Assembly: GCA_964411135.1 (NCBI GenBank)
Contig: CAYPJS010000078.1
Location: 111,495-175,494 of the forward strand
Source: an uncultured Anaerolinea sp.
Lineage (GTDB): Bacteria; Chloroflexota; Anaerolineae; Anaerolineales; Anaerolineaceae
Direction of reading: 5' to 3'
DNA: 64,000 nucleotides
The notes beneath the pieces were generated by a model, which ran no database searches, was not told the DNA's origin, and saw only the letters and a program-made list of their open reading frames with translations. The position numbers and the translations under genes were made by a program. Below are positions 1 to 1,742 of the stretch, one piece after another; within the stretch, counting starts at the first letter, position 1; each line of letters starts with the position of its first letter.

Positions 1-600
1 GGCCATAACAATTTCAACAATACTCTCTTCATCCGAGAAGGGTAAACTTTCGCGGTGAAGGATCTTGGCAGCCTGGTCGGCGAAATAATACACCTGAGTC
101 AATCTGTCGCTCAACTGCGTGTGGGAATCAAAACCTAATACCAGGATGCCTACCGGCTCGGTATCGATCCGCATTGGAAATAAAAAAAGGTTGTCGTTCG
201 GGGAAACCCTCAAGACAGCCTGCTGTTCGTAATTTAGAGGTGAAATATGCTGGTCAATGTAGGTAGGTTCATCCGCCAGGATGACACGCTGTAACAGATC
301 CTGGGTGCGATAATGATCGCGGGAAGCCGCGGGACGCAGCGAACCTGTTTTGTACAGTCCGCTGGAGGCCTGAACCCTGAAAGTGCCCCCTTGAGCCAGC
401 ACCAAAATCTGGCACTGCTTTACTTTTAATACTTCGACTACTTTCACAGCCAGTTGATTTAATAAACTAGATGACCCCTCGTAGCTGAACAGGTGCTCGG
501 AAGTCTCGCCAACCTCCACCAAATGTTCAACTGAAGGAGTAAACAGCGGCCGTGATGTCCGCTGTGATTCACCTAATAAACCAGAGCTACCAGATAACAT
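1..600 (-). CDS. GAF-domain signalling protein, N-terminal part only (runs off window start; possibly GAF + HD-GYP)
   Basis: Not in ORF track. Manual translation from ATG at 600 is open to base 1: MLSGSSGLLGESQRTSRPLF...LLNQLAVKVVEVLKVKQCQILVL...NLFLFPMRIDTEPVGILVLG...YFADQAAKILHRESLPFSDEESIVEIVMA. 'LFPMRIDTEPVGILVL...ADQAA' is GAF-like. HD-GYP continuation is inference only. Confidence 0.75.
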   Translation of the reverse strand, partial: MLSGSSGLLGESQRTSRPLFTPSVEHLVEVGETSEHLFSYEGSSSLLNQLAVKVVEVLKVKQCQILVLAQGGTFRVQASSGLYKTGSLRPAASRDHYRTQDLLQRVILADEPTYIDQHISPLNYEQQAVLRVSPNDNLFLFPMRIDTEPVGILVLGFDSHTQLSDRLTQVYYFADQAAKILHRESLPFSDEESIVEIVMA

Positions 601-680: not shown

Positions 681-971
681 TCAGTCGGCGGCGATGGCTG
701 ACATTCCCATTCGGGGAGATTTCATTGCGACATTGAGCTGGGAGGCAAAATCGGCCAGAGAGGTTGCGCGGATAGCGGTCAGGCGATTGCGGTCTTCGTT
801 TTCCAACAGGAATTTCTCGCCGGCAAAACCTACGGACACTGCCATGCCTGGATTGGAGAGCAATAATTGGCGGAATTGTGAGCTGACCACAGCTGCTGAA
901 AGGATCCGGCCATATTCGCGAGTGACATCCTGCTGACGGTTATTCGGACGGGCGAAGATTGTTTGAGACAT
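681..971 (-). CDS. Small protein (96 aa) resembling NHLP-leader (Os1348/Franean1_4349-like) proteins
   Basis: ATG at 971 preceded by AGGAG (minus strand AGGAGAATCAAAATG). 'YGRILSAAVVSSQFRQLLLSNPGMAVSVGFAGEKFLLENEDRNRL' matches the 'II.RA..D.eFR..Ll.nP..al..y.Lt.eE' pattern. Confidence 0.65.
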   Translation of the reverse strand: MSQTIFARPNNRQQDVTREYGRILSAAVVSSQFRQLLLSNPGMAVSVGFAGEKFLLENEDRNRLTAIRATSLADFASQLNVAMKSPRMGMSAIAAD

Positions 972-1557
972 TTTGATTCTCCTGTAAGGTTGAAACGCGC
1001 TCTCTGCCACCGATGGACCACAAAAGCCAGAAGGCACCCAGGGCAATCAGGATGTCGCCGATGGAAAAAGCGACTTTATACGACCAGCCCGCGGGAGTAT
1101 GGATAAAGTCCGAGAGGAACCAAAGGGTGGTGTCCTCTATCAGTAGGACGATATCCTTGCCGTAGCCTAACCGTTCACCCACCTGCCAGGAGTCTGCTGA
1201 ACCTGGCACCAGCCATTCAACGGTTTCGGGACTGATCGGCATCCATCCGCCATTCAAACTGATTACCAGCAGGTTCAGCAGCAAGCCAGTTCCCAGCACC
1301 AAAAAACCAGGGGTTCGGATGTTGGCTGCCACGAAAATGAGGAGCGCAAGTTGTGAAAGTACCAAAATCAATCGGATACCGAGTTCAGGTATGCTTGACC
1401 GCGTCAGTGGAAATGAAAATGCTAACCACTGGGCGGTTATTGCCAAAAATACAAGCCATACGAGTCGCAAAGGGTACGGCTGATAGGACCGTTTGTTTAC
1501 CGCCGCCCGGAGGGTTCCCCCCAGGAGACCGGCGGCGACACCAATAAGTAAAATCAT
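940..1557 (-). CDS. DUF5317-type integral membrane protein; putative signal peptidase II-like aspartic peptidase
   Basis: Multiple hydrophobic helices; motifs LNLLVISLNGGWMP, FLSDFI and FSIGDILIALG characteristic of DUF5317 and alignable to LspA GN..DR..G / VDFI / FNVAD. Confidence 0.75.
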   Translation of the reverse strand: MILLIGVAAGLLGGTLRAAVNKRSYQPYPLRLVWLVFLAITAQWLAFSFPLTRSSIPELGIRLILVLSQLALLIFVAANIRTPGFLVLGTGLLLNLLVISLNGGWMPISPETVEWLVPGSADSWQVGERLGYGKDIVLLIEDTTLWFLSDFIHTPAGWSYKVAFSIGDILIALGAFWLLWSIGGRERVSTLQENQNVSNNLRPSE

Positions 1558-1570
1558 CTAGGCTGGATGA

Positions 1571-1708
1571 TTAGAAACCGATCCCGAAAATCTGGATTTT
1601 TTCGATTACACCACCACCAGCAGAAGGAGCACCAGAGCCGATAACGAACATCGCAACCGTCAGAACGAAGAGGATAATGCGAGCCTTGGAAGCGGATAAT
1701 TTAGCCAT
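1571..1708 (-). CDS. 45-aa signal-peptide-like precursor peptide MAKLSASKARIILFVLTVAMFVIGSGAPSAGGGVIEKIQIFGIGF
   Basis: Below ORF-track length cut-off; translated manually (ATG at 1708, TAA at 1571-1573). RBS-like GGGA upstream (AAAGGGAAATACAAAATG); basic n-region plus 13-residue hydrophobic h-region; ends 13 nt before the DUF5317 start. Confidence 0.8.
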   Translation of the reverse strand: MAKLSASKARIILFVLTVAMFVIGSGAPSAGGGVIEKIQIFGIGF

Positions 1709-1742
1709 TTTGTATTTCCCTTTCAATTTGTGTTTTCAGTTT

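Follow-up and report, generated by a model that had tools for sequence, protein, structure and literature searches.

A gene for a 96-aa protein lies on the minus strand near the left edge of the window, i.e., the 64,000-nt stretch from an uncultured Anaerolinea sp. (assembly GCA_964411135.1, contig CAYPJS010000078.1, positions 111,495 to 175,494) that was analysed here. The original prediction, made from the letters of the window, had described this protein as similar to the nitrile hydratase-like leader peptides (NHLP) of peptides that are made by ribosomes and modified after translation (RiPPs), as lacking a core peptide and as encoded inside a signalling operon. NH is used below as shorthand for the protein, its gene and the NHLP-clan family domain. 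The minus-strand gene order is STAND-TPR-BTAD regulator, small membrane peptide, DUF5317 protein, NH and GAF-HD-GYP protein, and the features of the locus are as follows:

681..971, minus strand, stop codon included: NH gene (96 aa), assigned to the Os1348/PF14407 type of the NHLP clan; evidence from the open reading frame (ORF), profiles, homologues, dN/dS and RNA contigs
979..983, minus strand: AGGAG ribosome-binding site of NH, 7 nt before the ATG (971-969) and within the DUF5317 coding region; read directly from the sequence
720..917, minus strand: conserved helical domain of NH, residues ~19-84; alignments, AlphaFold2 (AF2) predicted local distance difference test (pLDDT) score of 86-91, column entropy of 0.8 bits
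684..719, minus strand: disordered C-terminal tail of NH, residues 85-96, in which the terminal [AG]-D alone is conserved; pLDDT <50 for residues 87-96, entropy
940..1557, minus strand: DUF5317 membrane protein, 205 aa; PF17248 at E=2.8e-33, AF2 pLDDT 90.8
1571..1726, minus strand: small membrane-peptide gene (45-51 aa), first of the operon; conserved in relatives, RNA contig ends
1899..5162, minus strand: STAND NTPase-TPR-BTAD regulator, 1087 aa; MalT-like N-terminal half, TPRs and BTAD
1..600, minus strand: GAF-HD-GYP protein, 378 aa, of which the first 200 codons are in the window and the remainder runs off the left edge; HD_5 at E=2.6e-39 on the full-length protein (L003)

Translation of the minus-strand ORF at 681-971 gave the protein quoted in the original prediction, and the AGGAG site, read 983-979 in the direction of the gene, was found as predicted in the 3' end of DUF5317. 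Given that the start codon and AGGAG of NH are within the DUF5317 ORF (940-1557), the two genes overlap by 32 nt on the same strand. Homologues of NH (n=73), approximately 95 aa in length and nearly all between 84 and 99 aa, were retrieved at E-values down to 1e-48, and 2140 representative clusters were matched at E<=0.001 in a library of 1.84 billion proteins; a cluster look-up via one NH homologue returned Chloroflexota clusters only. In comparisons of NH with four orthologues, nonsynonymous divergence (dN) was approximately 0.14, synonymous divergence (dS) was saturated and omega was in the 0.03–0.08 range (dN/dS approximately 0.05); purifying selection on NH is strong. Contigs from RNA libraries (metatranscriptomes) of four studies covered positions 685-1740 at 95-100% identity, and one such contig of 640 nt spanned both NH and DUF5317, although a single transcript is not provable from contigs of this kind and carry-over of DNA is possible. 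The segments 537-670 and 1743-2000 had no RNA contig coverage, which is not evidence of absence, and no intrinsic terminator or stable hairpin was noted in the interval examined, i.e., that between NH and the HD-GYP gene. NH is a genuine, expressed gene and by no means a chance ORF. In three studies, RNA contigs also terminated at 1714-1732, where the small-peptide gene has its 5' end, next to the uncovered segment 1743-2000; this hints weakly that transcription may start here independently of the STAND gene.

Compared alone with family profiles, the NH protein scored 20.7 bits (E=3.2e-4) against NF038399 (Os1348 family NHLP clan; cut-off 40 bits) and 17.2 bits (E=6e-3) against PF14407 (Frankia_peptide; gathering threshold 48 bits), reaching neither threshold, and gave no match to TIGR03793 (NHLP leader) at E<=1. 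In contrast, each of 28 aligned NH relatives from genomes of the same class matched both NF038399 (best 1e-24) and PF14407 (best 1.2e-19), six of the 28 weakly matched TIGR03793 (best 6.8e-4) and a few also touched the nitrile hydratase alpha model. The profile of this family, when compared with sequences in the PDB, found the Os1348 structure 6lk7_A at E=6.9e-7 in an alignment over residues 5-69, behind which came alpha chains of nitrile hydratase and a proteusin precursor of the NHLP type. Thus, the predicted resemblance to NHLP leaders is real; it is sub-threshold for NH alone, yet the family assignment is solid because all 28 relatives match and the family profile finds 6lk7. On the strength of these profile matches, NH is classed as a divergent member, below the naming threshold, of the Os1348/Franean1_4349 (NF038399/PF14407) branch of the NHLP clan. 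Of the profile comparisons that had been proposed for this protein, those with NF038399 and PF14407 agreed with the predicted relationship, weakly for NH and strongly for its relatives, while that with TIGR03793 gave no match for NH and weak ones for six of the relatives.

The AF2 model of NH (pLDDT 78) contains five helices across residues 11-84 (i.e., 11-29, 31-39, 41-47, 58-65 and 72-84) and a disordered C-terminal end. Matches of this model by VIA-align were all middling, with Z at most 5.7; values for 6lk7 (Z 4.7, root mean square deviation 3.4 Å over 59 residues), LigA 1b4u (Z 4.7) and 8tb1 (Z 3.9) lay in a range that is usual for small helical proteins. Among the 35 best structural rows were Os1348 (6lk7), LigA, a proteusin NHLP precursor, and 7twm and 9cgw SonA from the borosin pathway. 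Nothing significant was found by Foldseek comparison of the NH and DUF5317 AF2 models with the PDB, and the best row for NH, the anti-sigma factor AsiA at E=2.8, was treated as noise.

Three parts make up NH: a variable N-terminus, the domain of five helices and, at the end, a tail of 12-16 residues that is disordered. Column entropies in the close subfamily were 2.5 bits for the N-terminal 18 residues, 0.8 for residues 19-80, 2.2 for tail residues 81-94 and 0.72 for the last two residues, which are thus as conserved as the domain itself. The C-terminus was GD or AD in 71 of 73 close homologues, and the tail past a conserved 'QL' was 14-17 residues in length in 21 of 23 aligned close sequences. 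In the wider family, tails ranged from 0 to approximately 70 residues and were often of low complexity. The tail that follows the helical domain of NH, VAMKSPRMGMSAIAAD, contains no Cys, no Thr, two Ser and no GG, and the protein has neither a signal peptide nor a GG-type cleavage motif nor a Trp in the tail. The prediction that NH has no core peptide was overstated, as the protein ends in a short tail under constraint, 12-16 residues long, in which the terminal [AG]-D is conserved. In Pelolinea, NH (82 aa) stops directly after the last helix, so that the tail is dispensable.

Conservation of the operon was followed in a class sample of 301 Anaerolineae genomes, for which counts are lower bounds, the first-pass search having missed copies that were later found by direct search with hidden Markov models (HMM). 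NH family genes were present in at least 86 of these genomes, mostly as a single copy, DUF5317 genes in at least 100 and both in at least 65. Adjacent DUF5317-NH pairs numbered at least 55, with DUF5317 directly upstream and on the same strand in 53 of the 55, and approximately 40% of NH family genes had no adjoining DUF5317. Of 98 NH family matches, at least 57 had a STAND-BTAD orthologue upstream at a distance of no more than 4 kb. A GAF-HD-GYP gene was located immediately downstream of NH in 33 of 46 species-level genomes of the Bellilinea/Anaerolinea/Pelolinea group. The complete order, from STAND through small peptide, DUF5317 and NH to GAF-HD-GYP, was likewise counted in 33 of 46 related species, the cultured Bellilinea caldifistulae and Anaerolinea thermolimosa among them. 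The protein referred to as a GAF protein in the original prediction is, judged from its sequence, a GAF-HD-GYP cyclic di-GMP (c-di-GMP) phosphodiesterase in which the HD and HHExxDGxGYP motifs are intact. In more distant lineages, the gene after NH was a different signalling gene, for a receiver-only protein or a HisKA-HATPase kinase, and remote paralogues adjoined cyclase-AAA_16-TPR STANDs, a divergently oriented CHAT-NACHT gene, a GAF kinase and cNMP-binding proteins. Thus, the embedding of NH in a signalling operon was confirmed and is conserved across Anaerolineae.

Variants of these arrangements were also noted. The STAND orthologue closest to that of the window (39% identity; L075:126-885 on G195:C58) is followed by the small-peptide and DUF5317 genes without NH, next to which is a convergent STAND-like gene. 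At L078:626-2856 (G005:C1), a GAF-HD-GYP gene is directly upstream of the gene for a 311-aa DUF5317 protein with no NH gene, which suggests that DUF5317 and HD-GYP can pair without NH. At L065:9926-11146 (G190:C31), collagen triple-helix repeats and a PF14407 domain (residues 38-97) are found together in an ORF of 407 aa, after which an M16 peptidase gene comes. At L070:7599-10651 (G179:C48), two tandem NH family genes are followed by genes for a prenyltransferase/squalene-hopene-cyclase-like protein and a DUF362 protein, a locus closer in appearance to a RiPP cluster than to a signalling locus. DUF5317 was matched in the control genomes of Thermus thermophilus and Thermotoga maritima as well.

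The type of tail varied with the gene next to NH, [AG]-D endings being confined to loci with HD-GYP beside them. HD-GYP was the neighbour in 23 of 25 loci with [AG]-D tails, the other two being accounted for by a contig end and a non-detection, as compared with 10 of 21 loci with other endings. This result bears on the proposal that the partner of NH is instead the STAND-TPR-BTAD regulator, to which NH would be ligand, co-activator or anti-activator (e.g., through binding of its C-terminal Asp in a TPR clamp), the downstream signalling genes then being regulated cargo. We consider this proposal quite unlikely. The 57 or more family genes that directly follow a STAND-BTAD orthologue include genes at loci without DUF5317, and the STANDs that adjoin distant paralogues carry other effectors (cyclase-AAA_16-TPR; divergent CHAT-NACHT), which would indicate the STAND module rather than DNA binding; TPR domains, moreover, are classic binders of C-terminal peptides. 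However, adjacency to a cluster-situated activator is expected of any target gene, the [AG]-D tail tracks the HD-GYP neighbour whereas STAND is present with all tail types, and no NH-STAND fusion was seen, the fusions found (described below) being to receiver domains.

The original prediction had noted that the window holds no RiPP enzyme genes, and this was confirmed and extended to the genome, which is 97.9% complete. Genome-wide profile searches did not find YcaO (PF02624), LanC-like (PF05147) or C39 (PF03412) proteins, a HEXXH enzyme (TIGR04267) or an MNIO (PF05114), although the result for PF05147 is weaker than the others because its control matched in none of 14 named genomes. Radical SAM genes were absent from the window, the nearest being MoaA, 10 kb downstream. 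Modification enzymes just outside the window, which would have allowed NH to be a normal precursor, were likewise not found; nothing RiPP-like was present within 18 kb downstream or, upstream, in the checked ~12 kb of the window, and no ATP-grasp gene was seen among the annotated genes of the 18 kb downstream and the first 12 kb of the window, no genome-wide search having been run for that family. No ComQ-type prenyltransferase was found in the operon. The 18 kb past the left edge of the window contain the rest of the GAF-HD-GYP gene and genes for a Liv-type ABC importer, TIM, MoaA and RuvB. The Liv-type transporter was considered as an exporter and rejected because it is not conserved in relatives.

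With its conserved terminal [AG]-D, the tail makes a precursor role possible. NH would in that case be a genuine precursor, with the domain as leader and the 12-16-residue tail as the core of a signal peptide or RiPP, which an unrecognised enzyme (e.g., DUF5317 or the product of a distant gene) would release or modify and which the neighbouring HD-GYP, histidine kinase, receiver or STAND-TPR protein would sense in a circuit like ComQXPA or agr. We regard this as unlikely, although several observations speak for it. In Os1348/PosA, the canonical member of the family and a precursor of a RiPP, the core is short, contains no Cys and ends in ARMD (PMC12636437), and the ComX pheromone precursor is in the same LigA-like group of ECOD as PF14407 (PMC12353581). 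In addition, a conserved domain followed by a hypervariable tail of 0-70 residues is the pattern of the family, the tail of NH has a dN far below the saturated dS and its terminal [AG]-D is shared by 71 of the 73 close homologues, the order of membrane protein, peptide and sensor genes resembles agrBDCA and comQXPA, and some distant paralogues adjoin a prenyltransferase-like gene or an M16 peptidase. Opposed to these points are the lack of any known maturation enzyme or exporter in the genome or conserved neighbourhood, the lack in NH of a signal peptide or GG-type cleavage motif, the complete loss of the tail in Pelolinea and other lineages and the approximately 40% of family genes that have no DUF5317 beside them. 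Furthermore, the neighbouring small peptide, which is membrane-targeted and multi-copy, is a better candidate for a secreted signal, and in several proteins the NH domain is fused N-terminally to cytoplasmic receiver domains.

Such fusions of NH with receiver domains were found in four genomes and in one database protein, among them:

L074:4373-5233: NH-receiver fusion, 287 aa, receiver C-terminal to NH
L076:3076-3993: NH-receiver fusion, 306 aa, receiver C-terminal to NH
Database protein P0101: NH-receiver fusion, 266 aa, receiver C-terminal to NH, of a different sequence subfamily
L028:197-1603 (G112:C599): DUF5317-NH-receiver fusion in one open frame

In L028, the NH part has an RBS-like GGAAAGGG and an ATG in front of it in spite of the open read-through, and an assembly or frame error is possible because the contig is 1.9 kb in length and contamination of the metagenome-assembled genome (MAG) is 8%. 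Longer fused relatives of NH were not found in a set of 5.8 billion proteins, which is weak evidence; the fusions came from genome loci and from the library of representative clusters. From the receiver fusions it is argued that the NH domain acts inside the cell as a protein module and not as a cleaved leader.

Taken together, these results favour NH as a stand-alone helical domain that serves as a cytoplasmic protein-protein adaptor of a signalling cassette and not as the precursor of a modified peptide, a reading to which we assign a probability of approximately 0.5. An adaptor is favoured over a cleaved leader because NH is single-copy, lacks maturation enzymes, has a fixed position in the cassette, occurs in receiver fusions, has a dispensable tail and appears to be translationally coupled to DUF5317; the single copy in most genomes contrasts with the multi-copy NHLP precursors. 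The predicted reuse of a leader fold as an adaptor was thus supported in part, by fold family, lack of enzymes, conserved signalling context and receiver fusions, while the accompanying claim that there is no core went too far. In the proposed scheme, the BTAD activator would drive the promoter ahead of the small-peptide gene and NH would, by translational coupling, be made together with DUF5317. The helical domain would then bind a partner within the cassette, candidates being the cytoplasmic face of the DUF5317/small-peptide module and the STAND regulator, while the flexible tail, with its [AG]-D-COOH end, might dock on the neighbouring GAF-HD-GYP phosphodiesterase and so link a signal from the membrane or the regulator to the turnover of c-di-GMP. 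At loci with a receiver domain or histidine kinase as neighbour, phosphotransfer would be what the same NH domain couples to. For the tail, the likeliest partner is the output protein next door, in this case GAF-HD-GYP, and of the roles suggested with the original prediction, NH could conceivably act as anti-activator of the BTAD regulator or as partner of the GAF protein.

Several observations weigh against an adaptor. The partner of NH is deduced from gene order and fusions only, and the structural matches of NH all had middling Z values (at most 5.7). Three of the four genomes with fusions (G025, G071 and G112) come from two genera of a single taxonomic family (f27), and the triple fusion was encountered in one MAG contig only, which is short. 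The association of [AG]-D tails with HD-GYP is confounded by shared ancestry. NH is not essential to the cassette, as some cassettes of STAND, small peptide and DUF5317 genes are without it (e.g., in G195). Finally, purifying selection acts on the tail in close relatives and its last residue is Asp, as in the PosA core (...ARMD, PMC12636437), and a selected tail of this kind also matches what would be expected of a short core peptide.

A different relationship between NH and the small membrane peptides was also considered. In the complete genome of Pelolinea submarina MO-CFX1, seven near-identical tandem genes for 47-aa small peptides flank the tail-less NH downstream of DUF5317 (L101:5266-6701). 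Tandem amplification is typical of secreted peptide precursors. NH might be a recognition or chaperone subunit that holds the small membrane peptides or presents them to DUF5317, like the LigA-like N-terminal domain of TglI, although we think this very improbable. Besides the position of the tail-less NH inside the seven-gene array, the apparent translational coupling of NH to DUF5317 is in keeping with such a function. In ECOD, moreover, PF14407 shares its LigA-like group with the N-terminal domain of TglI, which is described there as the subunit that regulates TglHI and as a protein for RiPP recognition (PMC12353581). Nevertheless, many family genes are without a DUF5317 or small-peptide gene, the receiver fusions are left unexplained and the conserved loop of DUF5317 would, by the positive-inside rule, face outward whereas NH would be cytoplasmic.

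Invariant polar residues of DUF5317 were Q43, S68, N79, N95, N102, K134, D150, S165 and D168, the last five being in or beside a 60-residue loop between transmembrane segments 4 and 5. In VIA-align comparisons, for which Z was at most 5.9 over both models (NH and DUF5317), DUF5317 matched the LspA chains 5dir_A (Z 5.1) and 6ryp_A (Z 4.8), both at 19% identity. A DUF5317 HMM search of PDB sequences returned no LspA, and the likeness of the modelled DUF5317 to LspA is at best a weak hint.

NHLP- and Nif11-type domains are treated in genome mining as signatures of RiPP precursors, and the NH family itself is already known. The subfamily described here is large and conserved, lacks maturation enzymes and is wired to STAND/BTAD, DUF5317, HD-GYP and two-component genes; no paper was found that links the Os1348/PF14407 family to signalling cassettes or receiver fusions. 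We suggest tentatively, at somewhat less than even odds, that the Os1348/PF14407 branch may be mainly an intracellular interaction module of STAND, two-component and c-di-GMP cassettes, either free or fused to receivers, with PosA-type RiPP leaders as a specialised offshoot, and that many 'orphan NHLP precursors' may not be natural-product genes. If the adaptor reading is true, a structured leader fold can serve as a general protein-binding module, a handle is gained on the DUF5317/small-peptide system and a warning is given against the counting of such genes as biosynthetic clusters. Cultured hosts of the family are Bellilinea caldifistulae GOMI-1, Anaerolinea thermolimosa IMO-1 and Pelolinea submarina MO-CFX1.

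Of the known systems, Os1348/PosA of Pseudomonas sp. Os17 is a true RiPP precursor, the C-terminal QQQQ-ARMD of which is hydroxylated and oxidatively trimmed by an adjacent HEXXH enzyme; its gene neighbours encode this alpha-ketoglutarate HEXXH enzyme, an MNIO-nitroreductase and a GNAT (PMC7726476, PMC12636437). PosA and NH share a homologous helical domain, a similar size (85-94 aa for the former) and a short, flexible, Cys-free tail that ends in Asp, the 12-16 residues of NH being close in length to the PosA core; in Western blots of whole-cell lysates, Os1348 was present at full length. They differ in that PosA has a Gln run and ARMD whereas the tail of NH has no Gln run and shares the terminal Asp alone, and in that HEXXH and MNIO genes were not found in the genome of NH, the neighbours of which are DUF5317, GAF-HD-GYP and STAND. 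Leaders of the NHLP/Nif11 type (TIGR03793; prochlorosin and proteusin precursors, e.g., 8tb1) belong to the same clan as NH and are structured, protein-like domains that engage enzymes by protein-protein contact (PMC12537861), and the helix motif A-A-V...F-R-x-x-L-L-x-N-P is common to nitrile hydratase alpha and the NH family. In contrast with these leaders, NH is single-copy and has no Cys/Ser/Thr-rich core or GG site, and no LanM, YcaO or PCAT gene was found.

The Franean1_4349 family (PF14407), whose model is matched by all 28 NH relatives, was defined as ATP-grasp-associated precursors (PMC8939145), whereas no ATP-grasp gene was seen in the conserved neighbourhood of NH (no genome-wide search) and NH itself scores 17 bits against a threshold of 48. 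A comparison can also be drawn with ComX of the Bacillus ComQXPA system. The operon of NH has no ComQ-type prenyltransferase, its tail has no Trp, and a pheromone precursor would not be expected to occur in receiver fusions or to have orthologues without a tail. ComX is nonetheless like NH in its small size, its variable C-terminal tail and the position of its gene, which is between those for processing and for a two-component sensor, and it is placed in the same LigA-like fold group of ECOD as PF14407, the X-group in which a three-helix core is common to LigA, nitrile hydratase alpha, Nif11 and ComX (PMC12353581).
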